Shown: positions 17,846 to 56,862, counted from the stretch's first letter. The stretch is 64,000 nucleotides of DNA from Minisyncoccota bacterium (GCA_031291955.1 JARLIA010000005.1:74034-138033), one strand, 5' to 3'. Translations and numbers: made by a program. Notes: generated from the letters alone by a model not told the origin.

Positions 17846-20068
17846 ATGGAAAACAAATTCAAAATATCCTCCAAATTCAAGCCCGAAGGCGATCAGCCGC
17901 AGGCGATTGAAAAATTGACCGCGGGGCTTGAGGCTGGAAAAAAGTTCCAGACGCTTTTGGGCGTGACGGGGTCGGGGAAGACTTTTACCATTGCCAACGT
18001 CATTGAAAATATCCAAAAACCGACTTTGGTCATTGCGCCCAACAAGACTTTGGCGGCGCAACTGGCGCAGGAATTTCGGACTTTCTTTCCCAAAAGCGCG
18101 GTGGAATATTTCGTTTCCTATTATGATTATTATCAGCCGGAAGCCTACATCGCTTCCTCCGACACATACATCGAAAAGGAATCCCAGATCAACGACGAGA
18201 TCGACCGGCTTCGCCACGCGGCCACCGCGGCGCTCATGAGTCGCCGCGATGTCATCATTTGCGCTTCGGTGTCGTGTATCTACGGTTTGGGCAGCCCGGA
18301 ATATTATCGGAATATTACGCTGGAATTGGCGGTGGAGGACGGTTATTCGCAGGTTCGGGCGTCCACGCCCGAACCGCATAGTCCTGGTAAAACAAAATTA
18401 TCAGTCAAATCTGAATCGAAAATTTCCGCAGATAATAAAAAATTACCAGAAATGGCAGGTTCAATCGGGACGATTGAACCTGCAAAAAAAAATAATAGGG
18501 ACGAGATTGTAAAAAAATTGATCGACATGCAATATAATCGGAGCGATGTTTTGGCGCGGGGGAAATTCCGGCTGACCGGGAATACTCTGGAAATTATGCC
18601 GCCCGGACGGGAAATTGTAACGAGGATTGAAATGGAAGGGGGCAGTATTAAAAAAATATTCGAGTACGATTTTCTTACCGGCGAGGAACTGGGAAAGCTG
18701 GAAAAAGCGGTCATCTATCCAGCCAAACATTTCGTGGTGCCCGAACCGGTGATGGAAGGCGCTTTGGAAAAAATTCAAAAAGAAATGGAAGAGCAAGTGG
18801 AATTTTTCAAGCGTCAGGGAAAGATTCTGGAAGCGGAAAGGATTTCCCGTCGGACGCGCCAGGACATTGAAATGATGAGGGAAATCGGCTACTGCAATGG
18901 AATTGAAAACTATTCCCGCTTTCTCACTGAACGCCAGCCCGGTGAACCCCCCTACACTTTGATCGATTATTTTCCCGACGATTTTCTCATGGTGATTGAC
19001 GAATCGCATGTGACCGTGCCGCAACTCAACGGAATGTATAACGGCGACCACGCCCGGAAAGTCTCACTGATCGACAACGGCTTCCGCCTGCCTTCGGCTT
19101 TTGATAACCGCCCGCTTAAATTTCCGGAGTTCGAGAAAAAAATAAACCAGCTGATTTTCACGTCGGCGACACCGGCAAAATATGAAATGGAAAAATCAAA
19201 AATAGACCCCCTCTCCCGTAATCGGGAGAGGGTTGGGGAGAGGGCAACGCGGAACTCGGCGCCCTCTCTGTCGCGAGTACGCGACATCTCTCCCGAGTAC
19301 GGGGGAGAGGGAAATATTGTGGAACAAATTATTAGGCCGACCGGACTGATTGATCCAGAGCTGGAAATCAAGCCGACCAGAGGACAGGTGAAAGATGTGA
19401 CGGAGGAGATCAAAAAAATAATCGCCCGGAAGGAGCGGGTGCTTATCACCACGCTGACTAAAAAAATGGCCGAAGACTTGTCGGATTTCTTGAAAGAGAG
19501 CGAAGTGAAAGCTGAATATCTCCATTCCGGCGTGGACACTTTGGACCGGGTGCGGATTTTGGAACAATTGCGCCGGGGAAAATTTGATGTTCTGGTCGGA
19601 GTAAATTTGCTGCGGGAAGGGCTCGATCTTCCCGAAGTTTCTTTGGTGGCGATTCTCGACGCGGACAAAGAAGGATTTTTGCGGAGCGAAACGTCGCTCA
19701 TCCAAACCATCGGCCGCGCCGCGCGGAATGTCAAAGGAAAAGTTATTCTCTACGCCGACACCATTACCGGTTCGATGAAACGAGCTATCGACGAGACAAA
19801 CCGTCGCCGGGCAATCCAGACGGAATATAACAAAAAACATCGTATCACTCCAAAAACCATCAAGAAGAAAATCCAGTCGATCGTCGACCATGAAATCAAA
19901 CCTCAGGTGACGCGCGACTTTTCCCAATTGGAATCATTGGAGGATATGGCCGGCTACATTAAACAACGCGAGCGCGAAATGAAAGACGCGGCCCGGAATT
20001 TGGAATTTGAAAAAGCGGCGATCATCCGGGACGAGATAAGTGAGTTGAGGAAGCTGCAGATAAAATAG
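17846..20068 (+). CDS. uvrB: excinuclease ABC subunit B (740 aa, with two in-frame insertions)
   Basis: Walker A GVTGSGKT, helicase motifs, EQIIRPTGL, and C-terminal UVR domain EFEKAAIIRDEISELRKL. Confidence 0.95.
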   Translation: MENKFKISSKFKPEGDQPQAIEKLTAGLEAGKKFQTLLGVTGSGKTFTIANVIENIQKPTLVIAPNKTLAAQLAQEFRTFFPKSAVEYFVSYYDYYQPEAYIASSDTYIEKESQINDEIDRLRHAATAALMSRRDVIICASVSCIYGLGSPEYYRNITLELAVEDGYSQVRASTPEPHSPGKTKLSVKSESKISADNKKLPEMAGSIGTIEPAKKNNRDEIVKKLIDMQYNRSDVLARGKFRLTGNTLEIMPPGREIVTRIEMEGGSIKKIFEYDFLTGEELGKLEKAVIYPAKHFVVPEPVMEGALEKIQKEMEEQVEFFKRQGKILEAERISRRTRQDIEMMREIGYCNGIENYSRFLTERQPGEPPYTLIDYFPDDFLMVIDESHVTVPQLNGMYNGDHARKVSLIDNGFRLPSAFDNRPLKFPEFEKKINQLIFTSATPAKYEMEKSKIDPLSRNRERVGERATRNSAPSLSRVRDISPEYGGEGNIVEQIIRPTGLIDPELEIKPTRGQVKDVTEEIKKIIARKERVLITTLTKKMAEDLSDFLKESEVKAEYLHSGVDTLDRVRILEQLRRGKFDVLVGVNLLREGLDLPEVSLVAILDADKEGFLRSETSLIQTIGRAARNVKGKVILYADTITGSMKRAIDETNRRRAIQTEYNKKHRITPKTIKKKIQSIVDHEIKPQVTRDFSQLESLEDMAGYIKQREREMKDAARNLEFEKAAIIRDEISELRKLQIK
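18352..18483 (+). repeat. in-frame palindromic module 1 inside uvrB
   Basis: GGTTCGGGCG-TCCA-CGCCCGAACC (18352-18375) and GCAGGTTCAATCG-GGA-CGATTGAACCTGC (18455-18483) flank an A-rich word region. Confidence 0.85.
19209..19309 (+). repeat. in-frame palindromic module 2 inside uvrB (four consecutive hairpins)
   Basis: CCCTCTCCCG-TAAT-CGGGAGAGGG; GAGAGGGC-N15-GCCCTCTC; GTCGCG-AGTA-CGCGAC; CTCTCCCG-AGTA-CGGGGGAGAG. Confidence 0.85.
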
Positions 20069-20075
20069 TGAAAAA

Positions 20076-20087
20076 AGTTATCCACAG
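20076..20087 (+). promoter_or_regulatory. 12-mer AGTTATCCACAG containing a perfect DnaA-box consensus TTATCCACA
   Basis: Direct reading. 8 nt after the uvrB stop and 8 nt upstream of a -35 element. Confidence 0.6.
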
Positions 20088-20095
20088 GAGGGCGC

Positions 20096-20123
20096 TTGCT
20101 CATTCTTGTCGGAGTTCTATAAT
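20096..20123 (+). promoter_or_regulatory. promoter (TTGCTC, 16-nt spacer, TATAAT)
   Basis: Direct reading. Preceded by GGCGCTTGC. Confidence 0.55.
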
Positions 20124-20219
20124 TGAAACAGGCAAGGTTTGGAAACAAAGATACAATTAATGTTTCCGCGTATGAAATGCTATTTGGCTGGAAAATTAAA
20201 TGGCATTGCAATCATAATG

Positions 20220-20243
20220 AACACGTTTTAGGCGTGTTTTTTT
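20220..20243 (+). terminator. small rho-independent terminator
   Basis: AACACG-TTTTAGG-CGTGTT followed by TTTTT. Confidence 0.5.
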
Positions 20244-20259
20244 GTTCCCCGAAAACCCC

Positions 20260-20288
20260 TTGCAATTTTTCTCGAAACGTGCTATAGT
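20260..20288 (+). promoter_or_regulatory. promoter (TTGCAA, 17-nt spacer, TATAGT)
   Basis: Direct reading. Confidence 0.6.
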
Positions 20289-20294
20289 CGGCCG

Positions 20295-20615
20295 TTAGGA
20301 TAGGAAGATGGTTCTTTCAAAACTTGGTGCGTTTCAATTCTTAAATTAAACTTAGCTGTCTCACTAAAGACAATATGTATGGATGTTATTTTTAGCGAGG
20401 CAGTTAAGTTCTCAATATAAATTTTGCTCGCAGGAGCCACTTGAGCGAAGCACTCGTGGCATTTATCCGAAAGGATTTATACCATGCGCTCGGGAAAGGC
20501 CACTTCTGGGAAGCACTCGCGGCGGAAATCTCACCGTGCCCTAAAGGAGAGAAAAATTTATCTCTGCCAAGCCTCCGGGAAAGAAAGACATGTCTTTCTT
20601 TCCCATCCTCATTTT
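20295..20615 (+). ncRNA. candidate structured RNA or long leader (about 320 nt), class unknown
   Basis: Delimited by the 20260 promoter and the perfect 14-bp palindrome GGGAAAGAAAGACA/TGTCTTTCTTTCCC (20577-20604) plus a T tract. Contains two related 25-nt hairpin units (20436-20460, 20499-20523). No convincing ORF. Confidence 0.35.
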
Positions 20616-20677
20616 TGTTTGATTATACGGAAAAAGCAGTTATGCAGTTATAAAGTTTATTAGGAAAGGAGTTTGCC

Positions 20678-20890
20678 ATGTACGCTGCAAATGCGATGAG
20701 TGAGAGTCTGGTTTTGGCGGCAGTAACACTGGCGCCTCAGCCTGAGATGGCAGCAGTTCAGGGGATGTTCTTGTGTCGCCGCTGCGATGATTGTGGCGTT
20801 AGAGCTGATTTAAAATCAGCGGAGGGCAGCAGAGTAGTTCTTCAATGCCCCCGGTGTCAGAGGGAGTACACCTTTTTCAGTAGGGAGTAA
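20678..20890 (+). CDS. small zinc-ribbon protein (70 aa)
   Basis: Strong RBS GGAAAGGAG 7 nt upstream of the ATG. CRRCDDCG...CPRCQ, two CxxC pairs. Confidence 0.5.
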   Translation: MYAANAMSESLVLAAVTLAPQPEMAAVQGMFLCRRCDDCGVRADLKSAEGSRVVLQCPRCQREYTFFSRE

Positions 20891-20970
20891 TAAAAATGAA
20901 AACATTGAGGATTGAGACCGTGCCGGTAATCGGGACTTGTCAAAAGCATTGCTGACGAGTCCCTTTAAAT

Positions 20971-20999
20971 TTGTCTAAAAATAAATACTAATGTAGAAT
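20971..20999 (+). promoter_or_regulatory. promoter (TTGTCT, 17-nt spacer, TAGAAT)
   Basis: Direct reading, upstream of the 21028 gene. Confidence 0.55.
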
Positions 21000-21027
21000 A
21001 TGGCAGTAACTAATAAGAATAAAATAA

Positions 21028-22065
21028 ATGACGAACATGACGAAAAAAATAATCCTCATCGTGGTGATTGTGATTGTCGCGCTGGGGCTGGCGGGGTATA
21101 AATTTGCCAAGCCGGATTTTTCCAAGATTTTTGCCAAAAGCCAGACGACTAAGGTTCTGACGCCAGACCAGGCTAAAGTCAAAGCCCTGGATTATATCGA
21201 CAATAATCTGGTGCAAAAGGGCACAAAAGTAAGCGTGAAAAACATTGCTGAAGCGAACGGTCTTTATAAATTGGACCTGGATGTCAGCGGCCAGACCATT
21301 ACAGCCTATATGACCGAGGACGGTTCGCAGTTTTTTCCGAACGCTATGGACATGAATGCCGCGCCGGCCAAGCCAGCGGCGGCCGATCAGCAGCAAGCCG
21401 CCCAACAGCCGATTCCCAAAACAGACACGCCAAGCGTTCAACTTTTTGTGATGAGCTATTGTCCTTATGGCACGCAGATAGAAAAAGGGATTTTGCCGGC
21501 TCTTTCCGCTTTGGGAAGCAGTGTGAAATTTAATCTTGAATTTGTCGATTATTCCATGCACAACGATGCTTCGACCGGCGATCAGAAAGAACTCAACGAA
21601 AATTTGCGTCAGTATTGCATCCAGAAGCTCCAGCCGGATAAATTGGGAACTTACTTGAATTGCTTTTTGCAAAAAGGCCAGGGCACGGAAAGCGCTTGTA
21701 TGACCCAAGCCGGTGTGGACGCGGCGCCGGTCGCGACTTGTATGACAGCGACCGACAACCAATACAGCGTCAGTAAGAACTTTAAAGATCAAAGCACCTA
21801 CAATGGTCAGTTCCCGACGTTCAAAGTCGACGAAGCGGATAATCAGAAATATAACGTTCAAGGCTCGCCGACTTTGGTGATCAATGGAGTGGTTGATCAG
21901 GCTGGAAACCGTGATTCGGCTTCGCTGCTTAAGGATATTTGTTCAGCTTTCAATACAGCACCGGCCGCTTGCAGTACCGCTAAACTTTCTTCCACCGCGC
22001 CGTCGCCGGGATTCGGCACCGGTACGGACACGAGCGGTTCAAGCGCTAGTTGCGCGACGAAATAG
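21028..22065 (+). CDS. membrane-anchored secreted thioredoxin-fold-like protein
   Basis: N-terminal TM anchor. VQLFVMSYCPYGTQ resembles a thioredoxin/glutaredoxin active-site region but has only one Cys in the motif. Low-complexity S/T/G tail. Confidence 0.5.
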   Translation: MTNMTKKIILIVVIVIVALGLAGYKFAKPDFSKIFAKSQTTKVLTPDQAKVKALDYIDNNLVQKGTKVSVKNIAEANGLYKLDLDVSGQTITAYMTEDGSQFFPNAMDMNAAPAKPAAADQQQAAQQPIPKTDTPSVQLFVMSYCPYGTQIEKGILPALSALGSSVKFNLEFVDYSMHNDASTGDQKELNENLRQYCIQKLQPDKLGTYLNCFLQKGQGTESACMTQAGVDAAPVATCMTATDNQYSVSKNFKDQSTYNGQFPTFKVDEADNQKYNVQGSPTLVINGVVDQAGNRDSASLLKDICSAFNTAPAACSTAKLSSTAPSPGFGTGTDTSGSSASCATK

Positions 22066-22162: not shown

Positions 22163-22174
22163 AGTTATCCACAG
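22163..22174 (+). promoter_or_regulatory. 12-mer AGTTATCCACAG (perfect DnaA-box consensus inside)
   Basis: Direct reading. 7 nt upstream of the lexA -35 element, same arrangement as at 20076. Confidence 0.6.
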
Positions 22175-22181
22175 CCGGCGC

Positions 22182-22210
22182 TTGCGATGATATTTAATCA
22201 GTGCTAGAAT
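22182..22210 (+). promoter_or_regulatory. lexA promoter (TTGCGA, 17-nt spacer, TAGAAT) with overlapping inverted repeat CAGTG-N9-CACTG (22199-22217)
   Basis: Direct reading. Confidence 0.55.
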
Positions 22211-22241
22211 AACACTGTAATAAACTTAGATAATAAAAAAT

Positions 22242-23014: not shown

Positions 23015-26000
23015 ATGGACAAAATCATCATAAAAGGCGCGCGGGAGCATAATTTGAAGAACGTCGACTTGGAGCTGCCGCGGAATAAATTTATCGTTTT
23101 TACGGGAATTTCTGGGTCAGGGAAGTCGACCATGGCTTTTGATACTATTTTTGCCGAGGGGCAACGGCGCTATCTCGAAAGTCTTTCCAGTTACGCTCGG
23201 CAGTTTTTGGGGCAAATGAATAAGCCTGACGTGGACTATATTGAAGGTCTGTCGCCGGCCATTTCCATCGACCAGAAAGCGGCGTCCCACAATCCGCGTT
23301 CGACGGTTGGAACGGTGACGGAAATCCACGATTATTTGCGATTGCTATATGCCAAGATCGGCCGGCCACATTGTCCGATCTGCTCCCGGGAAATTACGAA
23401 GTTGTCGACAGATGAGATTGTTGATCGGATTTTGGAGATGTGCGCCGCGAAACCTCATCCGCCCCGGAGTACTGGGGCACCTTCTCCTTATAAAGGAGAA
23501 GGAGATAATGGAAGGGGCTGTTCTATCGAAATTCTATCGCCGGTGGTTCGCCAGCGGAAAGGGGAATATTCGACGATGCTGGCTGAGATGTTCCGGCGGG
23601 GGTTTTCCCGCGCTTACGTCAATGGGGAAAAATACGAACTGTCGGCCAAGATCGGAGACGAGTTGGAATTGGCCCGCTACAAAAAACATAATATTGATAT
23701 CGTGGTAGATGAGGTGGAGATATCTAGCGACAACATTTCGCGAATATTTGAAGGAGTGGAAAAGGCGCTGAAGTTGTCGGACGGACTGGTCAAGATAAGA
23801 TCCGAAATCCGAAATACGAAATCCGAAACAATGTCAAAATCAAAAATTAAAAATTCAAAACAAAACAATACGGAAATTGTTTTCAACCAAAAACTTTCTT
23901 GTCCGATCCATGAGATTGAGTTTCCGGAGTTGGAGCCGCGTTTGTTTTCTTTCAACAGTCCGTTTGGCGCTTGTCCGGCTTGCGAAGGATTGGGAACGAA
24001 AAAAGAAATCGACCCGGCGCTGGTGGCGCCGGATAAAAACAAAACGATTGCTGAGGGTGGCATCTTCCCTTGGAGCTACAAACGGAATAACTGGCAAGGG
24101 TCGGTTCTCCGGGCGGTTTGCAATCATTTCCACATCAAAGACAATGTGCGCCTCCGTGACCTTTCGGAAGATGACCTCAACATCTTAATGTTCGGCGGAC
24201 CGGATGCGACCGATATGATAGATAAGGAAGAAGCGGAAGAAATACCCGTCACTTTGAAATCAAAAACCGGTTCAAGCTGGAAATATTACATGACCTGGCG
24301 CGGAGCGGTCGGATATCTTCAAGATCGATATTTCAAGACCGATTCGGATGCGGTGCGGGCGGATATTGAAAAATATATGTCGCAAAATCCGTGTTCGGTC
24401 TGTCACGGCGCGCGTTACAAAAAAGAAGTCTTGCTGGTGACGGTCGGCGAATCCCGCCCGCAACGCTTCGCTAACGCAAGTGTTAGCTTGCGTAGCGATG
24501 CGGGCGGGAAAAATATTGTCGAAGTCTCAAATGTGTCTGTGGCTGAGACGCTTAAATTTTTCGAAAGACTGGAATTGAATAAAAATGAGCAGATCATCGC
24601 CGGGAGAATTTTGAAGGAAATTATTAATCGCCTAGGCTTTTTGGAAAACGTGGGACTGGGATATTTGACTTTGGCCAGATCCGCGGCGACACTAGCCGGC
24701 GGGGAAGCGCAACGGATCCGCTTGGCATCGCAAATCGGTTCGGGTCTCACCGGCGTTTTGTATATTTTGGACGAACCGTCGGTCGGTCTTCACTCGCGCG
24801 ACAACACTAAATTGCTCGAGACGCTTTTTCATCTGCGCGATCTGGGAAACACGCTAATCGTGGTTGAGCACGATGAAGAGACGATGCGGGAGGCCGACTA
24901 TTTGGTTGACATCGGACCGGGAGCGGGAAAATTGGGAGGTAAAATTGTGGCGCATGGCACGCCGGTAGAAGTTATTCGCGATAAAAAATCTTTAACCGCG
25001 GCATATTTGCGGGGTGACGCGAAAATAGAAATGCCGAAATTCCGCCGGCCAGTCAAGAATAAAAAAACGATTGTTGTCCGCGGCGCGCGCGAACACAATT
25101 TGAAAAACATTACCGTCGAGTTTCCTTTAAAAGTTTTGACGTGTGTGACGGGCGTGTCCGGCTCGGGGAAATCCACATTGGTAGAGGACATCCTTTATAA
25201 AGCCTTGGCGTCAAAAATCATGCGGACGCTCGACCGGCCGGGGAAACATTCGGAGATTGTCGGCACGCAATATGTTAACAAAGTGATCATGATCGACCAG
25301 TCGCCGATCGGTCGGACGCCGCGCTCCAATCCGGCGACTTATACCGGGCTCTTTACGCCGATCCGGGAATTATTTTCCCAGACCCGGGACGCCAAATCCA
25401 AGGGTTATGGTCCGGGGCGCTTTTCGTTCAACATCCGGGGCGGACGCTGTGACAACTGCCAAGGCGACGGCCAGCTTAAAATTGAGATGCAGTTCATGCC
25501 GGATGTCTATTTGCCTTGCGATGTCTGTCACGGAAAAAGATACAACAGTGAGACCTTGAAAGTGAAATACAAGGACAAAAACATTTCCGAAGTTTTGGAC
25601 ATGACGGTCAGCGAAGGGCGCGAGTTTTTTGAGAATTTTCCGGCTATTCACGACAAGCTGGCGGTTTTGGAAGACGTCGGCTTGGGCTATATCCAACTCG
25701 GGCAGTCCGCCACCACACTTTCCGGCGGGGAAGCGCAAAGGATAAAACTGGCCACGGAACTGGCAAGGAGGGCGACCGGCGACACTTTGTATATTCTGGA
25801 CGAACCGACGACTGGCCTCCATTTTGACGACATTAAAAAACTTTTGAATGTTTTGAACCGCTTGGTCGATGCCGGCAACACAGTGGTGGTGATCGAACAC
25901 AATTTGGACGTCGTCAAAACCGCCGATTGGATCATTGACTTGGGTCCGGAAGGCGGAGAAGGCGGCGGAAAAATTATCGTTACCGGTCCGCCGGAAGAAG

Positions 26001-26062
26001 TGGCGAAATATCATAAGGAAAGCTGGACGGGAAAGTATCTGAGAGATGTATTGAAAAAGTAG
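23015..26062 (+). CDS. uvrA: excinuclease ABC subunit A (1015 aa, with several in-frame insertions)
   Basis: Two ABC ATPase modules ([18 protein letters not shown]), LSGGEAQR signatures and zinc modules CxxC. Confidence 0.95.
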   Translation: MDKIIIKGAREHNLKNVDLELPRNKFIVFTGISGSGKSTMAFDTIFAEGQRRYLESLSSYARQFLGQMNKPDVDYIEGLSPAISIDQKAASHNPRSTVGTVTEIHDYLRLLYAKIGRPHCPICSREITKLSTDEIVDRILEMCAAKPHPPRSTGAPSPYKGEGDNGRGCSIEILSPVVRQRKGEYSTMLAEMFRRGFSRAYVNGEKYELSAKIGDELELARYKKHNIDIVVDEVEISSDNISRIFEGVEKALKLSDGLVKIRSEIRNTKSETMSKSKIKNSKQNNTEIVFNQKLSCPIHEIEFPELEPRLFSFNSPFGACPACEGLGTKKEIDPALVAPDKNKTIAEGGIFPWSYKRNNWQGSVLRAVCNHFHIKDNVRLRDLSEDDLNILMFGGPDATDMIDKEEAEEIPVTLKSKTGSSWKYYMTWRGAVGYLQDRYFKTDSDAVRADIEKYMSQNPCSVCHGARYKKEVLLVTVGESRPQRFANASVSLRSDAGGKNIVEVSNVSVAETLKFFERLELNKNEQIIAGRILKEIINRLGFLENVGLGYLTLARSAATLAGGEAQRIRLASQIGSGLTGVLYILDEPSVGLHSRDNTKLLETLFHLRDLGNTLIVVEHDEETMREADYLVDIGPGAGKLGGKIVAHGTPVEVIRDKKSLTAAYLRGDAKIEMPKFRRPVKNKKTIVVRGAREHNLKNITVEFPLKVLTCVTGVSGSGKSTLVEDILYKALASKIMRTLDRPGKHSEIVGTQYVNKVIMIDQSPIGRTPRSNPATYTGLFTPIRELFSQTRDAKSKGYGPGRFSFNIRGGRCDNCQGDGQLKIEMQFMPDVYLPCDVCHGKRYNSETLKVKYKDKNISEVLDMTVSEGREFFENFPAIHDKLAVLEDVGLGYIQLGQSATTLSGGEAQRIKLATELARRATGDTLYILDEPTTGLHFDDIKKLLNVLNRLVDAGNTVVVIEHNLDVVKTADWIIDLGPEGGEGGGKIIVTGPPEEVAKYHKESWTGKYLRDVLKK
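23461..23502 (+). repeat. in-frame double hairpin inside uvrA
   Basis: GCCCCGG-AGTA-CTGGGGC (23461-23478) and CCTTCTCCTT-ATA-AAGGAGAAGG (23480-23502). Confidence 0.85.
24452..24509 (+). repeat. in-frame 58-nt long hairpin inside uvrA
   Basis: Outer stem TCCCGCCCGC/GCGGGCGGGA (10 bp). Inner stem GCTA(A)CGCAAG/CTTGCGTAGC. Confidence 0.85.
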
Positions 26063-27407: not shown

Positions 27408-30221
27408 ATGCCCACTCAAAAATCTTCTCCTAAAAATACTTTCTCACTGAAGGATAAAATCGTCATCCGTGGCGCGCGGGTGAATAATTTGAAGAACATC
27501 GACGTGGACATTCCGCGGGATAAATTGGTCGTAGTGACAGGTCTTTCCGGGTCGGGGAAATCTTCTTTGGCTTTTGACGTGGTCTACGCCGAAGGCAATC
27601 GGCGGTATCTGGAAGGCATGTCGAGCTACGCCCGGCAGTTTTTGGATGTTTCGGCTAAACCGGACGTGGACAAAATAGAGAATTTGAGCCCGACCATCTC
27701 AATTGATCAAAAAAGCTTGAGTCGTTCACCTCGCTCGACGGTCGGGACGCTCACGGAAATTTACGATTATTTGCGAGTGCTCTACGCCAAAGTGGGAACG
27801 CCCTATTGTCCTCATTGTCTCTTGCCGATGGGGCGCAAAAAGAACCAGGAAATTTTGGAGGAAATTTTGGTTTTGCCGGAAAATACCCAAGTGGCGGTCC
27901 TGGCTCGGATAAAAAATGAAGGTCAGAGTGTTAAGGATATTCTCAAAAACATCAGTCAGCTTGGTTATGCCCGGGCGCGGGTTGGCGGTAAAATCGTCTT
28001 GATTGCCGACGCCTTGCTTTTTCCGGAAGAAAACTTGAGCGGCAACGTCGAAATCGTGGTTGACCGGATCAATCTCAAGAAAAAAAATCCCGATCACGAA
28101 CGGATGTTGGATTCTATTGAGACTGCTTTTAAATTGGGGAAAGGTTTTATGGCGGTCGCAATCGATAATGGTGAGAGCCGGATTTATAATCAAAATTTTG
28201 TTTGCAGCAACTGCTATTTCAAAATTTCGGAAATCACGCCCAAGAATTTTTCTTTCAACAGTCCCGAAGGCGCCTGCGAACATTGCGCGGGAATGGGTAC
28301 TATCCAGGAAGTGGACGAGGATCTGATCATTCCTAACAGAAATCTCACTTTGGCCGAAGGAGCTATTATGCCGCTCGCCAAGTCCGGCGGCCGGGCTGGG
28401 TATCTCGATACTCTCACCAAGATCGGCGAGAAAGCGGGTTTTTCCGTGAATGAACCGGCGCGGAACATTTCCAAGGAAAATTTGAAAGTTATTTTTCATG
28501 GTTTTGGTGTGCCTGGTACTCCTGGTTATTTTGAGGGAGTGGTGCCGATGATTCGAAAAAAATATACCGAAGCGGCCACTCAGACGGCCCGGACCGACAT
28601 CGAAAAATATATGCTGGAAAAAGATTGTCCCGAGTGTGGAGGCAAGCGTTTGAAAAAAGAATATTTATCCGTCTTGATGAGCGGGAAATCGATCGACGAT
28701 TTGGTCCGGATGGATATCGATACTCTCATTTTATTTTTAGAAAATTTACGGACTGCCGATTTGAGTGCCGCCAAAGCGGAAATCGTGGCGCCATTGGCAA
28801 AAGAAATGATCGCCAAAGCCAAGGCGCTCAAGAACGTCGGCTTGGAATATCTGTCACTTTCCCGCCGGGCCGATTCCATTTCCGGCGGCGAAGGTCAGCG
28901 CATCCGGCTCGCAACTCAAATTGGATCGGAACTTTCCGGTATTATCTATGTTCTGGACGAACCGTCTATCGGTCTCCATTCCCGAGACAATGAAAAGTTG
29001 ATCGACACGATGGAAAAGCTGAAAGAGAACGGCAATTCTCTGATCGTGGTCGAGCATGACAAAGACATTATCGAGTGCGCCGATTGGGTGATCGACATGG
29101 GTCCCGGGGCAGGGGAGTTCGGCGGGGAAGTTATCTTTTCCGGTTCGGTGAAAAAAATGGAGAGCGTCGCGACATCCACTGCCAAGTTCCTTTCCGGCCG
29201 GGAAAAAGTAACGGTTAAGAAGAAACCGCGAACGGCATCGAAGAACTTTTTGGAAATCCTGGGTGCCGCAGAACACAATTTGAAAAATATCGACGTCCGG
29301 ATTCCACTCGGCCGTTTTGTTGCCGTCTCGGGCGTGTCCGGTTCGGGGAAATCCACTTTGGTAACCGACATTCTGGCTCGAGAGCTGGCCCGGCATTTTT
29401 GGAAGGCTAAGAAAAATCCCGGAAAGCATGATAAAATCACTGGTCTTAACCGCTTGGATAAAGTGATTAATATCGATCAATCGCCGATCGGCCGGACGCC
29501 GCGTTCCAATGCCGCCACCTACACCGGTGTCTTTTCACTTATTCGGGAACTTTTCTCCGCCACCGAAGAGGCGAAAAAACGGGGCTACGATGCCAGTCGC
29601 TTCAGTTTTAATGTCCGGGGCGGCCGTTGCGAAGATTGCCAAGGCGACGGAACAAAAAAGATCGAGATGCATCTTTTGCCGGATATGTATGTCAAATGCG
29701 AAACTTGCCAGGGAACGCGCTATAACGCCAAGACGCTTGATATTGAATATCAGGGTGCTACCGTCGCCCAGGTGCTGGATATGAGTGTTTCCTACGCGCT
29801 TCGCTTTTTCCATAAATCGCCGCTTATCGCGGCTAAACTGAAAACGCTGGAAGAAGTCGGCCTGGGCTACATCAAACTGGGACAGAGCGCCACAAATCTT
29901 TCCGGCGGAGAAGCGCAGCGGATAAAATTGGCTACCGAGCTCGCCCGGAAATCGACCGGCAAGACTTTGTATATTTTAGATGAACCGACCATCGGGTTGC
30001 ACTTTGAAGATGTGCGGAAATTGCTTCAGGTGCTGGACGCGCTGGTCGAAAAAGGCAACACTGTTCTTGTGGTGGAACATAATTTGGACGTCATCAAGAA
30101 CGCCGACTGGGTGATTGATCTCGGGCCGGAAGGCGGAAACGGGGGCGGCGAAATTGTTTACGCCGGCGAACCGAAGGGGCTGAAGAAAGCGAAGAGGAGT
30201 TGGACAGGAAAATATCTGTAA
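27408..30221 (+). CDS. uvrA: excinuclease ABC subunit A, second paralog (937 aa, no obvious insertions)
   Basis: Same domain order as 23015..26062: [23 protein letters not shown] signatures and zinc modules. Confidence 0.93.
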
Positions 30222-30360
30222 AAAATTTTCAATTTTCAATTTTCAATTTACAATCAATTTTCAATGATTCAATTTTCAATTCAGAAGACGATGCGGACTT
30301 GAAAATTGATAATTATTTGAGTTGATCATTCATTGATGATTGATTATTGTAAATTGATAA
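30222..30360. repeat. AT-rich word-stutter imperfect palindrome (TTTTCAA words), copy 1
   Basis: TTTTCAATTTTCAATTTTCAATTT at 30226-30249 is identical to 56742-56765. The right half carries complementary TTGA-type words (AAAATTGATAATT...). Confidence 0.8.
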
Positions 30361-31349: not shown

Positions 31350-31354
31350 CGGTT

Positions 31355-31428
31355 CATGTAAACATATTAACATTTAAACATATTAACATGTTAAAAAAGT
31401 CTTTTGTTAACATGCTAATATGCTAACA
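31355..31428. repeat. TTAACAT-word repeat block, copy a
   Basis: TTAACATTTAAACAT at 31367-31381 is identical to 44326-44340. Confidence 0.75.
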
Positions 31429-33135: not shown

Positions 33136-33145
33136 TTAAAATTGG

Positions 33146-33157
33146 CTGTGGATAACT
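33146..33157 (-). promoter_or_regulatory. 12-mer AGTTATCCACAG in inverse orientation
   Basis: The plus strand reads CTGTGGATAACT. Sits between the groEL terminator and the promoter of the 33230 gene. Confidence 0.55.
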
Positions 33158-33229: not shown

Positions 33230-35971
33230 ATGAGAAAAATAAAACTTCTAGTTGTCTTAATGGTGCTGTCTTTTTTGGCGGTCTCGCCGGCTCTCGCGCA
33301 GACAGCCGCGCCGAATCAACCGGACGACACTGGTGTTGTAGTTATGCAAACAGTGTCGATTGCCAATGCTAAAATAGTTTCGCAAGATAAGAACAATGTG
33401 AAAGTTTCTTTCGATATCTATGCCGGACCGCAAGTCCAATCGGATGTGCGCTATGGAATAAGTCTGGAACCATTAGACGGGTCTGCTGTTTATGAAAAAG
33501 CGTTCCCAGACAACCTTACTATAGGAGCAAGTAAATCCGTTCACGAAGAAATCACTTATCAGGCTCCGGACTTCCTCGTTGGAGACTATCAACTGTATGT
33601 TGTCAGCAAAAATTCCCGCGGACTGCTTTTGAGCGAGAGATTGGCGGGCCAAGTAAATTTCAGCGGAACCGGCCAATGGATCGAGTTGGGGGATTGTTAC
33701 ATGACAATTCAAGGAGAAGCTGCTGCTACCCACTATGATCTTAATCAGGGCGTAGACATTAAACCCAGCGAAGTTTTGAAGGCTCATTGCAGTGCGACAA
33801 GTCATCTGTCTTCCCAGGCGACACTTCAGCCGTCTTTCGAAATAATGAGGCGGGGAAGTTACGGAGAAAGCGTACTAGTTCCTCAGGATGCTCTCCAGCC
33901 GCTTACCATCGCTCCAAATGAGACCAAAACATTGGATTTCGTCCTGCCGAAAGCTATGGAGCCTCAGGCTTATGATACGATTCTGACCTACAAAAATGCC
34001 AGCGGAGCGTCGGTGTCCAACGACATCGCTTTTCATTATGTTATTTTCGGAGAAAGCGCCACAATTCAAGGCGTTCAGCTTGACAAAAATTCCTACGCCG
34101 CCGGCGATACGGCCCAGGTGAGTTTCTTTTGGACGCCTTCCGCTGATATTTTTTCCGGCTCGCGATTTGGGGGAACTCCGGATAAAACAGCTCAAATAAA
34201 AATATCCATAACCGATTCTAATGGCCAAAAATGCGCCAATGATGTCGAGAAGGCGCTTGTGGATGTTTCGGGACTAGACAAGATGACTGTTTCAGTGGCG
34301 ATATCCAGCGCTTGCGCTAGTCCCAATGTCGCGGTGTCCATCGTGGACAGCACTGGCAATCAAACACTGGACGCGCTTTCTTTTGATATGACTCGCGGAA
34401 AGAATCCAACCACCGCCTCTCCTTCGCCATCCGCGAAAACATCCGGCAGTGATCTGAAAAAAGCAATCGCCCTTATTGTCGGCTTGCTGTTTCTCATTTC
34501 AATTATCTTTATTATCATAAAAAGAAACAACAAAGCGCGGATGATGATTTTTGTCTGCGGCCTCCTGGGAAGCGCGGCTATGTTCTTGGGAGTCGGCAGT
34601 GCCCGGGCGGATACACTGTTCAGTGTTGACAGGCGTTGCACAAAGGTAAATGGCGTAAACCATTGTGACGGTCCTACTGAATATCTTGTGCATATTGATG
34701 GTGTTAATAACGATATAATTGGCTATAATGCTAACGGTTGGCCGGAATTCACGCCAAATTCAAAAATAGATGTTTACGGAGAAACAGAATATAACACCAA
34801 CTGCAGCAATGGCCGCATACAAGGATCAATTTTGGATGTAACAATGAATAAAGGTTCCCAAGGCACCAATTCGTTTAATCTTTATGATACGATATATAGT
34901 TCATCCGGGGCCAATGCCCAAGGCCGTGTCACTCTTTATAACTCCACCAGCCAAAAGGTTACCTTAAGCTATGATTTTAGTACGATGATTACTGACGGGT
35001 CGGGGAAGAGTTATTATTTGTACGGTGAGCGTAGCGCCAAGGTAGCGCCTACTTTGATCATTCCGGCAGCCACCACCAGTAGGAAAGGAATAATAATTCC
35101 GGGTAAAAAAGTTGCAAATGTAATTGCGACAGATTCAGGCCCCAGCTATAACATATCAGGACCGGATAATTTTACGGTCAGCCAGGCTCTAGATGATGGA
35201 TGGTGGGGCGACGATTCTCAATCCGGTAATTACCAACCTGTCTCAGGCGTCACGGCGGAACTAGCTAATAAGGCAAAAATATCAGGCGGAAATTACAAGG
35301 ATTACGCTAAAGGAGACAGCATTGTGAATGCTCCAAGTACTCCAAATATGCTTACTGAGTGGGGCCATTTGTTTAATTATCCGTATTATGTTAAGTTTAC
35401 AGGCCATTTGGGATCAGTGGGCGGAACGCGGAATTATACAAACTCAACTGATATTTCTTATCTTGTCGTGGTCCCTGGCGTCTGCGACAGTGCTACTAAC
35501 GGCAAAACTCTTCCTTCTGTCCCAGCCACTAATTTATGCAGCGCTGGCACCGCTAGTCCAGTTGTTACCAGCACAAGTCCCTGGACGTGGACCTGCCAAG
35601 GAACTGTCGGAACTGCTCCGGCTAAATGCTTCGCCAACCAAACAGCATCCACTTCCTGCACCAACTCAACCCCCCCGGATTCTCATAGTTTAAAGTGCAA
35701 CAATAAAGCTCCGCTCACTAACACTTCCACTAATAAATTAGTTTCCAGTTGTAGCGGCTCAGACAATAATGGATATTGTGAATATTATTGCAATGGATAC
35801 AAATACCAAAACGGAAAATGTGTCCCTAAAGATCCTTCCTGCAGTCCGACCACTTGTCCGCCAGCGAATCAGATATGTTCCGGCGCATCATGCACCGAAA
35901 TCGACAAGTATTGCCATTCGACAAACATTCCCGGCACTAAAACTTGCAATTGGAGAGAAGTAGCGCCGTAA
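33230..35971 (+). CDS. large surface protein (913 aa): signal peptide, ectodomain, TM hairpin, second Cys-rich ectodomain
   Basis: N-terminal signal VLSFLAVSPALAQT. Central AIALIVGLLFLISIIFIII-KRNNKAR-MMIFVCGLLGSAAMFLGVGSARA. C-terminal CxxGxxSP..PWTWTCxG and multi-Cys tail. Confidence 0.8.
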   Translation: MRKIKLLVVLMVLSFLAVSPALAQTAAPNQPDDTGVVVMQTVSIANAKIVSQDKNNVKVSFDIYAGPQVQSDVRYGISLEPLDGSAVYEKAFPDNLTIGASKSVHEEITYQAPDFLVGDYQLYVVSKNSRGLLLSERLAGQVNFSGTGQWIELGDCYMTIQGEAAATHYDLNQGVDIKPSEVLKAHCSATSHLSSQATLQPSFEIMRRGSYGESVLVPQDALQPLTIAPNETKTLDFVLPKAMEPQAYDTILTYKNASGASVSNDIAFHYVIFGESATIQGVQLDKNSYAAGDTAQVSFFWTPSADIFSGSRFGGTPDKTAQIKISITDSNGQKCANDVEKALVDVSGLDKMTVSVAISSACASPNVAVSIVDSTGNQTLDALSFDMTRGKNPTTASPSPSAKTSGSDLKKAIALIVGLLFLISIIFIIIKRNNKARMMIFVCGLLGSAAMFLGVGSARADTLFSVDRRCTKVNGVNHCDGPTEYLVHIDGVNNDIIGYNANGWPEFTPNSKIDVYGETEYNTNCSNGRIQGSILDVTMNKGSQGTNSFNLYDTIYSSSGANAQGRVTLYNSTSQKVTLSYDFSTMITDGSGKSYYLYGERSAKVAPTLIIPAATTSRKGIIIPGKKVANVIATDSGPSYNISGPDNFTVSQALDDGWWGDDSQSGNYQPVSGVTAELANKAKISGGNYKDYAKGDSIVNAPSTPNMLTEWGHLFNYPYYVKFTGHLGSVGGTRNYTNSTDISYLVVVPGVCDSATNGKTLPSVPATNLCSAGTASPVVTSTSPWTWTCQGTVGTAPAKCFANQTASTSCTNSTPPDSHSLKCNNKAPLTNTSTNKLVSSCSGSDNNGYCEYYCNGYKYQNGKCVPKDPSCSPTTCPPANQICSGASCTEIDKYCHSTNIPGTKTCNWREVAP

Positions 35972-42667: not shown

Positions 42668-44311
42668 ATGCGAAATCCGAATATGAAGAAAAAAAATAAC
42701 ACAATAAAAAACGTTCCACGTTTTACGCTACGCGTTTCGCGACGCGAAGGATCGGCTTTGGCATACGCTTTAATTATTATGTTGGCTGTGATGATTATTC
42801 TGACGTCCCTTATCAGTTATATCGTGAGCCAAATGAACTACAGTTCCAACCAGGCGGAGAGGCAGGAAGCTTTCGAAGTGGCGGAAGCGGGCGTCTCTTG
42901 GTATAACTGGTATCTGGCCCACCAAACCGACGGCAAAACGGCCCAGCAGATCAATAACTTTTGGCAGGGAACAAGTCCCAGTCCTTTAGGCATTGGTTCT
43001 CTCTATCAGCAAACCTTTACCGCTCCGGACGGACAGACGCTGGGAAGTTACAGTCTGGATGTTCAGCGCCCCGTTCTTGGCTCGACGATCGTGATAGTTA
43101 AATCGACCGGTTGGACCAATCGGGCGCCGAATGAAAAGCGGACGATCCAAGTTCGGTTTCGTCGTCCTTCCTGGAGTGAATATGCTGTTCTGGCTAACGA
43201 TGTGATGAGGTTCGGACAAGGAACGGTGATCAATGGAAAGATCCAATCCAATTATGGTATTCGTATGGATGGAACGGCTAATAACGTCGTCTCCAGTTCA
43301 GTGGCTTCCTATGACGATCCCGACCACAGCGGCAAAGTGGAGTATGGGGTGCATACGCATCTCATTCCGCCGGCAGATACAAGCCTGGCCGATCCTTATC
43401 TTAATAACGAAGCCCCGGCCAACAACGGTCTCATCCCGCCGGATCGGCCGGATGTTTTCAAGGCCGGCCGTAAATTTCCAGTGCCGACAGTGAGCTTTAC
43501 CGGCGTAACTTCCGATTTGGCTTATATGAAAACTCAAGCGCAATCCGGTAGCGGGAAATATTTTGACAATACCGGCAAAGGGCGTCAAATAATCTTGAAT
43601 TCGAACGGTACCTATACGGTTTATACTGTCAATTCTTATGACGCGCCGCCCTCTCCCTTGCCTTCTTCAACTTCCAACACCAATTCCATCACTGGTTACG
43701 CGGGTACCAAAAATTCCAACGGAACCGGCTCGGCTTGCACGGCGTTAGTAACAATGAACGGGCCAAACACGCAATGCAAAAACAAAACAACCGGCTCTAC
43801 TTGCTATTGTTCTTCAGCGACTTATACTATTCCCAATAATGGCATTATTTTCGTAGAGGACAATATTTGGCTGGAGGGCACAATCAATAAAGAAAAGGTG
43901 ACGATTGTGGCCGCCAATATGGGCAGCGGAACGCAGGCCAATATTTTTGTCGGCAACAACAATATTCTTTATACCAATTTTGACGGGCAAGATATTCTGG
44001 GCGTGATTGCTCAAGATGACGTGGAAGTGATCAAAAACAGTCAGACCACTCTGACTTTGGACGGTGCCTTCATCGCTCAGAACGGCCGGGTGGGGCGCGA
44101 TAACTACGGCACTTCTGACTATAAAAATTCCATCACTGTCAATGGCTCCATCGCGACCAATCAGCGTTATGGTTTTTCTTGGACAGATGGATTTAATAGC
44201 TGGGGATATGACGATCGCATCCTGAACTTCGACAACAATTTGATCTATTATCCGCCGCCCTATTTTCCGACCGGTACCGAGTATTCCATAGATCTATGGA
44301 AAGAGCTGTGA
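42668..44311 (+). CDS. PilX-like N-terminal-domain pilus protein (547 aa)
   Basis: REGSALAYALIIMLAVMIILTSL matches the PilX_N pattern. The start may instead be the ATG at 42683. Confidence 0.7.
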   Translation: MRNPNMKKKNNTIKNVPRFTLRVSRREGSALAYALIIMLAVMIILTSLISYIVSQMNYSSNQAERQEAFEVAEAGVSWYNWYLAHQTDGKTAQQINNFWQGTSPSPLGIGSLYQQTFTAPDGQTLGSYSLDVQRPVLGSTIVIVKSTGWTNRAPNEKRTIQVRFRRPSWSEYAVLANDVMRFGQGTVINGKIQSNYGIRMDGTANNVVSSSVASYDDPDHSGKVEYGVHTHLIPPADTSLADPYLNNEAPANNGLIPPDRPDVFKAGRKFPVPTVSFTGVTSDLAYMKTQAQSGSGKYFDNTGKGRQIILNSNGTYTVYTVNSYDAPPSPLPSSTSNTNSITGYAGTKNSNGTGSACTALVTMNGPNTQCKNKTTGSTCYCSSATYTIPNNGIIFVEDNIWLEGTINKEKVTIVAANMGSGTQANIFVGNNNILYTNFDGQDILGVIAQDDVEVIKNSQTTLTLDGAFIAQNGRVGRDNYGTSDYKNSITVNGSIATNQRYGFSWTDGFNSWGYDDRILNFDNNLIYYPPPYFPTGTEYSIDLWKEL

Positions 44312-44313
44312 GT

Positions 44314-44409
44314 CATATTAGCATGTTAACATTTAAACATGTTAACAAGAAATTTTTTCAATAAAAATGTTAATATGCTAAAATAATAATGTGCTAAAAT
44401 GTTAAAATG
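44314..44409. repeat. TTAACAT-word repeat block, copy b
   Basis: Shares TTAACATTTAAACAT with 31367-31381. Shares AATGTTAATATGCT (44366-44379) with 47920-47933. Confidence 0.75.
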
Positions 44410-47569: not shown

Positions 47570-47664
47570 GTGTACGGCGGGCAGGGAAGCCAAGTACTCT
47601 ATCCACTGAGCTAAGGGCGCATAAATACATTCTGGCATTTCTTGGTAATTCCGTCCAGCGCGGA

Positions 47665-55488: not shown

Positions 55489-56739
55489 ATGAATCGACCG
55501 AAGCTCCTTATGTTCGGATGGGAATTTCCGCCGCATAACAGCGGCGGCTTAGGTGTAGCCTGTTTTGGTCTTTCCCGGGCTTTGTCCCGTCTGAACACTG
55601 AAATAATTTTCGTCCTGCCGCAAAAGATTCCGACCACAGCTGATTTTATGCGGGTAGTTTTTCCGGAAGATTATTTGAGCGAAGAGATTATCCGTCAGAG
55701 CCGCTTAACTGGAGATTTAATGTTGCACGCATATGTTACTTCCCAAGAATATCAAACCCAACTTGAGAAAGTCTCCTTGCTAAAAGGTGCGGTAACCTAC
55801 GCCAGTGATCTTTACGGCGAAGTGCGCCGCTACGGGGTGTTGGCTCGGGCGATCGCCAAAAAAGAAACTTTTGATGTTATTCATGCGCATGACTGGCTCT
55901 CTTTTCCTGCTGGCATCGAAGCTAAAAGAGTGAGTGGAAAACCGCTGATTGTCCATGTCCATGCTACAGAATTTGATCGCTGTGGCGGACCTGACATCAA
56001 TCGGCAGGTATTTGAAATCGAAAAAGAAGGTTTGGAGAAAGCGGATGGTATCGTGGCGATCAGTGAATTTGTGAAAAACAATATTATCCGAAATTACGGA
56101 GCTGATCCAAAAAAGATCCGGGTCATTCATAATGGCGTGGACGAAGAAGATTATGCGACTGATCCGGGCGCCCACGAAGGCTTCGAAGCGCTCAAGGCGG
56201 CCGGTAAAAAAATAGTTCTTTTCTTGGGACGGATTACTATTCAAAAAGGACCGGACTATTTTATTGAGGCAGCCAAAATTGTTCTCAACTACAATCCCGA
56301 TGTCATTTTTTTGGTGGCCGGCTCGGGCGACATGGAGCGGCAGATGATTCGGAAAGCCGCCGAACTGGGGATCGGAGACAAAGTTATTTTCACTGGATTT
56401 TTGCGCGGCAAGGAATGGCTCCAGGTTTTCCGCTCCGCCGATCTTTTCGTCATGCCATCCGTTTCCGAACCGTTTGGCCTTGTGGCGCTGGAATCGATGG
56501 TCAATGGTACGCCGGTTTTGATTTCCAAACAATCCGGAGTGTCGGAAGTGGCGCGAAATGTCCTCAAAACTGATTTTTGGGACACGGAAGAAATGGCTAA
56601 TAAGATTCTAGCAGTCTTGGGCAGCGAAGGCTTGCCGGCCGTGCTTAAAAAAGAAGGTTTTTCTGAAGCGCGCGAGATTAGCTGGAAAGAGGCGGCCAAA
56701 AAATGTATCGAATTTTATAACCAATTGGCACAGACATAA
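55489..56739 (+). CDS. glycogen-synthase-like glycosyltransferase (GT4/GT5 type)
   Basis: FPPHNSGGLGVA N-terminal motif, HAHDW, and C-terminal PSVSEPFGLVALESM. Start set to ATG 55489. Confidence 0.8.
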   Translation: MNRPKLLMFGWEFPPHNSGGLGVACFGLSRALSRLNTEIIFVLPQKIPTTADFMRVVFPEDYLSEEIIRQSRLTGDLMLHAYVTSQEYQTQLEKVSLLKGAVTYASDLYGEVRRYGVLARAIAKKETFDVIHAHDWLSFPAGIEAKRVSGKPLIVHVHATEFDRCGGPDINRQVFEIEKEGLEKADGIVAISEFVKNNIIRNYGADPKKIRVIHNGVDEEDYATDPGAHEGFEALKAAGKKIVLFLGRITIQKGPDYFIEAAKIVLNYNPDVIFLVAGSGDMERQMIRKAAELGIGDKVIFTGFLRGKEWLQVFRSADLFVMPSVSEPFGLVALESMVNGTPVLISKQSGVSEVARNVLKTDFWDTEEMANKILAVLGSEGLPAVLKKEGFSEAREISWKEAAKKCIEFYNQLAQT

Positions 56740-56862
56740 AATTTTCAATTTTCAATTTTCAATTTCTAAACAATTTCCAATGTATGAATTGATAAATTTT
56801 AAAATTGGTAAATTAAATAATTGTTTGAAAATTAAAAATTAGAAATTGAAAATTTAAATAAT
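56740..56862. repeat. AT-rich word-stutter imperfect palindrome (TTTTCAA words), copy 2
   Basis: 56742-56765 is identical to 30226-30249. The right half carries AAATTGAAAATT, the reverse complement of AATTTTCAATTT. Confidence 0.8.

Follow-up and report, generated by a model that had tools for sequence, protein, structure and literature searches.

Between uvrB (positions 17846-20068) and a gene for a thioredoxin-like protein (21028-22065), a 64,000-nt stretch of DNA from a Minisyncoccota bacterium (GCA_031291955.1, JARLIA010000005.1:74034-138033; referred to here as the window) contains an island that raises the question of which RNAs it specifies and what they serve. A sequence-only reading had divided this island into Unit 1, a short transcript bounded by a promoter and a terminator, and Unit 2, a structured RNA of about 320 nt extending from a second promoter to a perfect palindrome with a T tract, and had regarded the latter as an independent small RNA (sRNA) or as a riboswitch or attenuator leader of a small open reading frame (ORF). 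The promoters, terminator, repeats, GAAA-capped stem, palindrome, and elevated G+C content on which this reading was based are all present and were confirmed as observations, and the interpretation was partly supported. What had looked like a 320-nt structured RNA or a riboswitch combines a conserved leader with a strain-specific insert, and the island contains a previously uncatalogued small RNA module, consisting of Unit 1 and the leader hairpin. All features of the island described below are located on the + strand.

Searches at the protein level with UvrB and with the thioredoxin-like protein, and subsequent inspection of the corresponding contigs, yielded close relatives. The named UvrB relatives are metagenome-assembled genomes of the Parcubacteria group or of Moranbacteria, and a homologous island extending from uvrB to the thioredoxin-like gene was found in related metagenomic, Parcubacteria/Moranbacteria-like lineages. 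We compared five distinct lineages, the window, L088, L095, L096, and L098. The nearest relative is L088, with 84% identity to the window in UvrB and 91% in the thioredoxin-like protein; the latter is 81% identical in L095, 78% in L096, and 76% in L098. L097 is an identical copy of L096, and the island in L099 and L100 is identical to that of the window, these being the same organism from other samples. The L096 contig is truncated at the 5′ side and begins downstream of the position of the DnaA box described below. The lineages share the order DnaA nonamer, Unit 1, CU-rich box, 23-bp hairpin, ACUUCUAA-like motif, ribosome-binding site, small Cys-rich ORF, closing hairpin, and promoter of the thioredoxin-like gene, except that L095 lacks the 23-bp hairpin and has only the first half of the box. 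Between the window and L088, box plus hairpin form the best-conserved segment of the locus (91.8% DNA identity), followed by the thioredoxin-like gene and lexA (86%), Unit 1 (82.6%), uvrB (78%), and the small ORF (67.5%).

Unit 1 (20130-20246) comprises approximately 115 nt and is conserved in all five lineages. It is preceded by P1 (TTGCTC at 20096-20101, a 16-nt spacer, and TATAAT at 20118-20123), which was read from the sequence and was not listed by the promoter scan of the window; the promoter scan did, however, call the P1 homologues of L088 and L098, with 10 and 11 of 12 matches, respectively. A 5′ hairpin (~20140-20167) is followed by hairpin H1 (20176-20185 with 20198-20207) and by an intrinsic terminator, a G+C-rich stem-loop (stem at 20219-20239) with the T run directly after it, as expected of such terminators (U run within 0-2 nt of the stem). 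It was called by the terminator scan, and all five lineages have both this terminator and H1. In these two helices, 8 of the 17 pair positions vary, and pairing is preserved, mostly via G-U (U-A to G-U, U-G to U-A, C-G to U-G, A-U to G-U), the only exception being the two outermost pairs of H1, which are open in L098 and L096. As the helices rely on G-U pairs, the substitution pattern points to selection acting on the + strand RNA. The fold of Unit 1 has a z-score of -2.5. The covariance models R1 and R2, when searched over 0.24 Mb of Patescibacteria loci, retrieved the training sequences only, with R2 finding just the five lineages.

The sequence-only reading had offered a 23-aa peptide encoded from position 20160 as an alternative product of Unit 1. 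This appears unlikely, because L088 has lost the ATG at 20160, no Shine-Dalgarno sequence precedes the in-frame ATG at 20172, and all eight codon differences between the window and L088 are nonsynonymous, with none at a third position, so that the reading frame changes in the manner of noncoding DNA. On the strength of these comparisons, we regard Unit 1 as a genuine small RNA or part of a leader, in line with the short promoter-to-terminator transcript that had been proposed. It resembles Rho-independently terminated sRNAs with their own promoter in its sigma-70-type promoter, its length, its two to three hairpins, its G+C-rich final stem with the U run directly after it, and its conservation at the nucleotide level. 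In contrast to these, Unit 1 is physically continuous with the downstream leader in two lineages, so that it may act in cis, as a leader, and not in trans.

The first ~115 nt of Unit 2 are the 5′ untranslated region (UTR) of a 70-aa zinc-ribbon ORF and contain promoter P2, the CU-rich box, and the 23-bp hairpin. P2 (20260-20288, TTGCAA-17-TATAGT with a TG extension) was found by the promoter scan and is conserved in the window, L088, and L095. The box (GGTTCTTTCAAAACTTGGTGCGTTTCA, 20310-20336) is near-invariant in the window, L088, L098, and L096 and has the consensus GGTTCTTT(C)AAA..GGTG..TTTCA. The 23-bp hairpin (20351-20408) was evaluated with RNAalifold and pair counts on an alignment of four sequences belonging to two clades, anchored by the conserved flanks. 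In this alignment, 96.7% of the cells were paired, and changes on both sides had occurred in 11 of the 23 pairs. None of 500 shuffles reached the covariation score, and when the partner strand was slid by 1-3 columns, only 36-57% of the cells were paired. The G-U pairs of the hairpin fit the + strand. The helix is thus supported by covariation, within these four sequences from two clades. By eye, the hairpin was also considered as an integron attC-like site; this was rejected, as the GTTAAGT-like 3′ end is lost in L096 and L098 and no unpaired central spacer is present.

The Shine-Dalgarno sequence of the small ORF (AGGAAAGGAG, 20662-20671) is identical in L088. In the predicted folds of L095 and L098, the ribosome-binding site pairs with an ACUUCU motif, and in that of L088 it pairs with another CU-rich stretch of the leader. 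In the predicted fold of the window, it is largely unpaired. A promoter, a conserved leader of ~100 nt with a long hairpin, and CU-rich motifs complementary to the ribosome-binding site, followed by a small ORF, are features also of 5′ UTR leaders that mask the Shine-Dalgarno sequence, such as translational attenuators and RNA-thermometer-like or sRNA-controlled leaders. The present leader differs from those in that it matches no curated family, that masking is a prediction, which applies to some of the lineages, and that the cargo ORF varies among lineages while the leader is kept.

The 70-aa ORF itself (20678-20890) encodes a zinc-ribbon-like protein (CxxC...CPxC), and the arrangement of a leader ahead of a well-initiated small ORF, as noted in the sequence-only reading, holds. 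In L088 the frame is kept over 70 codons despite a nucleotide divergence of 32%, the amino acid identity is 54%, and the CxxC and CPxC motifs and their spacing are retained. Between the window and L088 we counted 18 synonymous versus 32 nonsynonymous codon differences, with an excess at the third position (19/22/35). The ORF is thus probably a real, fast-evolving gene, as judged from this pair of sequences. By exact look-up and word-indexed search among 5.8 billion proteins it is an orphan. A relationship to FmdB-type zinc ribbons (NCBIfam TIGR02605, Pfam Zn_ribbon_8) was not obtained: the L088 homologue scored 21.2 bits compared to a cutoff of 31.3, and the protein of the window had no match to this model, its nearest one being the dual-CXXC model NF041197 with an E value of 0.025. 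At the same place, the other lineages carry different cargo, namely, an ORF of 155 aa in L095, one of 82 aa in L098, and two tandem ORFs in L096, compared to the zinc ribbons of 70 and 71 aa in the window and L088. The proteins of L095 (2894-3361) and L098 (497-745) share a 48-residue motif (E = 1e-11, 44% identity over 48 aa), C..C...EGNxDC[FY]G...C..CK[YW]R, which is matched by no curated family. For the cargo ORFs of all lineages, nothing above threshold was found in Pfam, NCBIfam, PHROGs, or PADLOC. Downstream of the ORF follow a closing hairpin (GGGACTTGTC...GACGAGTCCC, 20932-20963), conserved in L088, L095, and L098, and, just after it, the promoter of the thioredoxin-like gene (20971-20999), which together with its leader is conserved even in relatives without the island.

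The remainder of Unit 2 behaved differently from its first third. The segment at 20409-20655 (with ambiguous borders, 20409/20425 on the left and 20620/20655 on the right), corresponding to a net surplus of ~210 nt, is absent from L088, L095, L096, and L098 and occurs only in the window, L099, and L100; the distance from the leader hairpin to the ribosome-binding site is 25-50 nt in the four relatives versus ~255 nt in the window. As four lineages have the short distance, parsimony favors an insertion over a deletion. The segment contains a GAAA-capped stem (20461-20480), a perfect 28-nt palindrome (20577-20604), and two direct repeats of 25 nt (20436-20460 and 20499-20523), which the sequence-only reading had taken as related hairpin units. 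The identity of 21 of 25 positions could be verified, but the second copy is unable to form the hairpin of the first, since substitutions break three of the eight pairs, and the units are therefore repeats rather than two conserved hairpins. As a second repeat pair was found at 20475 and 20560 (71%), the 25-nt copies belong to a degenerate 63/85-nt tandem duplication. The palindrome had been regarded as the end of the transcript. It is not a canonical terminator, because the T tract (20612-20616) begins only 7 nt beyond it, and the terminator scan made no call here.

The G+C content is 0.46-0.55 in 20400-20599 (0.50-0.55 in the strain-specific segment), compared to 0.32-0.39 in the flanks. Folding of 20289-20620 was stronger than that of shuffled sequences (z = -6.0 for the + strand and -4.9 for the minus strand), whereas the strain-specific segment alone folds moderately (z = -3.65 and -2.1, respectively). 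The segment had no match in Rfam, among phage and plasmid records, or among viral contigs, and neither the window nor 1.9 Mb of related DNA contains it a second time. The whole island likewise had no match among phage and plasmid records, and its DNA patterns gave in viral contigs either none or two chance matches inside phage coding genes. A stretch of 32 nt (20469-20500) is similar to the sequence around the ribosome-binding site and ATG of the small ORF, with 23 of 1,000 shuffles reaching the same score, which hints weakly at an origin of the segment by local duplication. Two related candidates were rejected: as a duplicate of the 5′ end of the zinc-ribbon gene, the segment gave protein-level and stringent DNA alignments no better than shuffled sequences, and as a remnant or homologue of a 116-aa gene of L086, with which it shares an MSEAL start, it gave E > 1.

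With respect to known RNA families, a search of the window with Rfam 15 at gathering thresholds returned five tRNAs located elsewhere and nothing in the island. When 19950-21050 was searched up to E = 10, all matches had E > 1, the best one reaching 21.7 bits compared to a threshold of 52.7. ARAGORN found no transfer-messenger RNA (tmRNA). Rfam and ARAGORN thus agree with the earlier impression that RNase P, tmRNA, signal recognition particle, 6S, and T-box RNAs are not represented, and no reclassification of the island to a known family follows from the Rfam check.

The site of the island is itself variable in the clade. A scan of species genomes with UvrB was swamped by universal motifs and returned only ~50% identical genes from many phyla. 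A scan of JGI metagenomes with the neighboring 345-aa thioredoxin/GILT-like membrane protein revealed relatives with 45-66% identity that do not have the island and whose UvrB proteins are 70-76% identical. In L082 and L085 the thioredoxin-like gene directly follows uvrB. In L086 (2920-3810), two unrelated genes, for a membrane protein and a response regulator, are located in between; L089 to L091 carry different genes at this position, which in L089 (5640-8330) are VWA-domain genes; and L093 (4900-5500) has an IS200/IS605 Y1 transposase there, ahead of which the DnaA box and a P1-like promoter are retained. Since relatives carry nothing, other genes, or an IS200/IS605 transposase at the 3′ junction of uvrB, this junction is a variable insertion hotspot.

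Several explanations of the strain-specific segment and of the island as a whole were weighed against the one we favor, which is given below. The segment might be a second small protein gene (TTG at 20441 to TAA at 20654-20656, 70 aa), cotranscribed with the zinc-ribbon ORF, in which case the RNA structure would be incidental. Indeed, one frame (20408-20653) stays open over 82 codons and nearly coincides with the extra segment, an AGGAG is located 4 nt before the TTG, the stop codon lies 21 nt before the next ATG with both ORFs in the same frame, and the 63-nt spacing of the repeats equals 21 codons. Moreover, the N-terminal half resembles a helical protein sequence, and L096 has two tandem small ORFs at the equivalent place. 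The statement of the sequence-only reading that the island has no convincing ORF thus has to be qualified by this open frame, but it stands with respect to homologues and codon usage. A HMMER search over 1.84 billion representatives gave no true homologue, its two matches being repeat-summed and to unrelated repetitive proteins; the only other copies of 20441-20653 are identical ones; and Pfam, NCBIfam, PHROGs, and PADLOC had no match. The frame has a codon score of -10.5, close to the scores of the two alternative frames (-13 and -12), whereas real genes average +30 with a 5th percentile of +12.7. As the ORF would also have to contain the perfect palindrome and to start from a TTG with a short spacer, we consider a second gene unlikely. 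The view of the sequence-only reading, in which the ~320 nt from P2 to the palindrome are a single sRNA or riboswitch-type attenuator with the palindrome as terminator, could draw on the strong folding of the + strand, a GNRA-capped stem, and a strong hairpin with a T run upstream of a well-initiated ORF. The z-score, however, is owed largely to the conserved hairpin and the perfect palindrome, and the distance of the T run, the broken hairpin of the second repeat, and the Rfam result all speak against this view. The candidate aptamer (20409-20620) is missing in all four related lineages, although these keep the start of the leader, and in L088 also the ORF, and the part of Unit 2 that is conserved is a single plain hairpin. 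Conservation or covariation, the lack of which had been named as grounds for abandoning the proposal, is thus missing from the 3′ two-thirds of Unit 2 but present in Unit 1 and the 5′ third of Unit 2. A riboswitch or an independent 320-nt RNA is not supported, and we rate it as very unlikely, whereas the reading as a leader is supported.

An origin of the segment as a small nonautonomous mobile element or a remnant of an insertion sequence (IS) would fit the insertion hotspot, the G+C content above that of the surroundings, and the two similar hairpin-like direct repeats, which are reminiscent of IS200/IS605 ends. Features of miniature inverted-repeat transposable elements or IS derivatives were nevertheless not found: terminal inverted repeats and target-site duplications are lacking at either possible border, the segment occurs as a single copy (the genome examined being the 64-kb window, complemented by the related DNA), it has no similarity to the IS200-like ends of L093, and phage, plasmid, and viral collections contain no match to it. 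Together with the weak evidence for a local duplication instead, this makes a mobile element quite unlikely. The island was also considered as a pair resembling toxin-antitoxin systems, either type I-like, with Unit 1 as antitoxin sRNA against a structured toxin mRNA, or type III-like, composed of repeats, terminator, and ORF. In favor of such a pair are a small RNA with its own promoter beside a small ORF with a long structured 5′ UTR, the location within a cluster of DNA damage genes, and the hypervariability of the cargo ORFs. The order of promoter, repeated RNA units, hairpin plus T run, and ORF with a good ribosome-binding site is like that of ToxIN type III loci. The cargo proteins, however, are Cys-rich and soluble and not hydrophobic like type I toxins, and complementarity between Unit 1 and the leader is at chance level, the duplex energies lying in the range of shuffled sequences. 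As for ToxIN, there are just two degenerate repeats, diverged (84% over 25 nt) and of unequal length, which are missing in relatives that keep the ORF, and the ORF encodes a 70-aa zinc ribbon with no PADLOC or Pfam match rather than a ToxN-like endoribonuclease. We regard a toxin-antitoxin-like pair as the least probable of these possibilities, very little weight being left for it. Direct pairing of Unit 1 as antisense partner of the leader (20121-20148 with 20312-20339) was rejected on the basis of the same energies; in L088, these arms show one double compensatory change but two breaks, and half of the Unit 1 arm lies upstream of the predicted transcript start. An 8-bp pairing of Unit 1 with the box (UGAAAUGC with GCGUUUCA) is kept in four lineages, yet is short enough to occur by chance.

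We favor, with somewhat better than even confidence, an accessory regulatory cassette in the excision-repair/lexA cluster, composed of the Unit 1 RNA, a translation-controlling leader of a small ORF, and a strain-specific insert. According to this proposal, P1 with its flanking DnaA box would drive a three-hairpin RNA of ~115 nt ending at the intrinsic terminator, and P2 would drive the mRNA of the small zinc-ribbon protein, whose 5′ UTR would start with the CU-rich box and the 23-bp hairpin. The leader would most likely control translation of the small ORF by masking its ribosome-binding site. In L098 and L096 the ~65-nt segment with P2 is absent and the Unit 1 terminator abuts the box. Upstream of the ORF, L098 has P1 as its sole promoter-like site, and in the truncated L096 contig none was seen. 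In lineages without P2, the ORF would therefore be reachable from P1 only by read-through of the Unit 1 terminator, and because of this requirement Unit 1 probably started out as the first section of the leader; alternatively, it may be a separate sRNA. In the strain represented by the window, ~210 nt would have been inserted between hairpin and ribosome-binding site. This insert would be a young, strain-specific piece of folded UTR, possibly derived from a local tandem duplication; it is not a conserved RNA domain. In the predicted fold it lies between the leader and the ribosome-binding site and leaves the latter largely unpaired.

A number of observations weigh against parts of this proposal. 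Only five lineages in two clades are available, and most of the covariation counted reflects the divergence of these clades from each other. Transcript starts, ends, and read-through are predictions. For L096, the folds predict no masking of the ribosome-binding site, and in L088 the partner of this site is a different CU stretch. An antiterminator alternative for the Unit 1 terminator was not found, and the duplex energies of Unit 1 with the leader were no better than those of shuffled sequences. The codon usage of the small ORF is nonnative. Finally, a deletion in L088 is possible, as the microhomology TAAG/TAAAG flanks one candidate deletion, and the L088 linker resembles 20545-20563, which would be compatible with two indels or with an L088 deletion.

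The proposed connection to replication stress comes from the region upstream of P1. A 12-mer (AGTTATCCACAG, 20076-20087) contains a perfect DnaA-box nonamer (20078-20086) and is located 8 nt upstream of the -35 region of P1. In the window, three exact DnaA nonamers are present compared to 0.29 expected, and the other two are likewise located just upstream of promoters, that of lexA (22165) and one on the minus strand (33147). The complete 12-mer occurs at 20076-20087 (+), 22163-22174 (+), and 33144-33155 (-), each time just upstream of a -35 region. The three promoters concerned, which belong to Unit 1, to lexA, and to an orphan gene of 913 aa at 33230, may form a small regulon. A DnaA box upstream of P1 is also present in L095 and, in inverted orientation, in L088 and L098, and the lexA promoters of five relatives have a DnaA box upstream as well. 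As P1 and the lexA promoter have both the 12-mer and the adjoining GGCGCTTGC in common, coregulation of the two is suggested, with DnaA possibly being the regulator. DnaA control of SOS genes has been documented for E. coli uvrB (PMC6015884). Our locus is similar to DnaA-box-controlled genes of DNA damage or replication stress such as this one in having a perfect DnaA box immediately upstream of the -35 region within a DNA repair cluster including lexA, with a small protein gene downstream. It differs in that each promoter has a single box, that DnaA binding is a prediction from the box sequence, and that the 12-mer extends past the nonamer and could belong to another factor. The lexA promoter additionally contains a palindrome, CAGTG-N9-CACTG (22199-22217), which spans the -10 region, is unique in the window, is kept in the lexA promoters of relatives, and is probably the LexA operator of the clade. 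As it is present at the lexA promoter only, a LexA operator within the island was rejected.

Further observations concern the surroundings of the island. The thioredoxin-like gene is followed by lexA, uvrA, uvrC, and a second uvrA; the two diverged uvrA paralogues (23015-26062 and 27408-30221) flank uvrC and share ~73% identical DNA in long blocks. UvrB of the window has 740 aa compared to 650-690 aa in most relatives, and two low-complexity stretches are apparently inserted at about residues 165-215 and 470-510. Two intergenic repeat pairs were noticed, one of 53 nt and the TTCAATTTTCAA type (30222-30274 and 56738-56790, 87% identical) and one consisting of 8-nt-periodic arrays of the AACATNTTAAACAT type (31354-31404 and 44305-44363), of which one copy is located just upstream of groEL (31436). 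Between the genes for tRNA-His and tRNA-Arg lies a fragment resembling the 5′ half of a tRNA (47586-47620, minus strand), with acceptor and D arm but no T arm, which was called neither by ARAGORN nor by Rfam.

To our knowledge, very few regulatory RNAs have been described for Patescibacteria, and their damage response is known from comparative genomics only. As a practical lesson, the most eye-catching structure of the window proved to be its least conserved part. A more far-reaching interpretation, which we offer as a speculation of low probability, is that Unit 1 and the box-hairpin leader form an undescribed riboregulatory module of this Parcubacteria/Moranbacteria-like clade that responds to DnaA or replication stress and gates interchangeable small Cys-rich proteins between uvrB and lexA. 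If this were true, the module would combine a constant element, the conserved RNA, with a variable one, the cargo. B. subtilis sda is reportedly a DnaA-box-controlled gene of the damage and replication stress response, and the cargo proteins could then act as checkpoint factors for damage or replication that vary from lineage to lineage, in analogy to Sda or the nonhomologous SOS cell division inhibitors encoded beside lexA in other phyla. With few metagenomic lineages, an inferred mechanism, and elements of ordinary kinds, an sRNA and a leader, the significance of the finding is modest. Nevertheless, a conserved sRNA and a covariation-supported leader within the uvrB/lexA/uvrA/uvrC cluster, together with a 12-mer in common with the lexA promoter, provide a testable handle on how replication status and repair might be coupled in reduced genomes.

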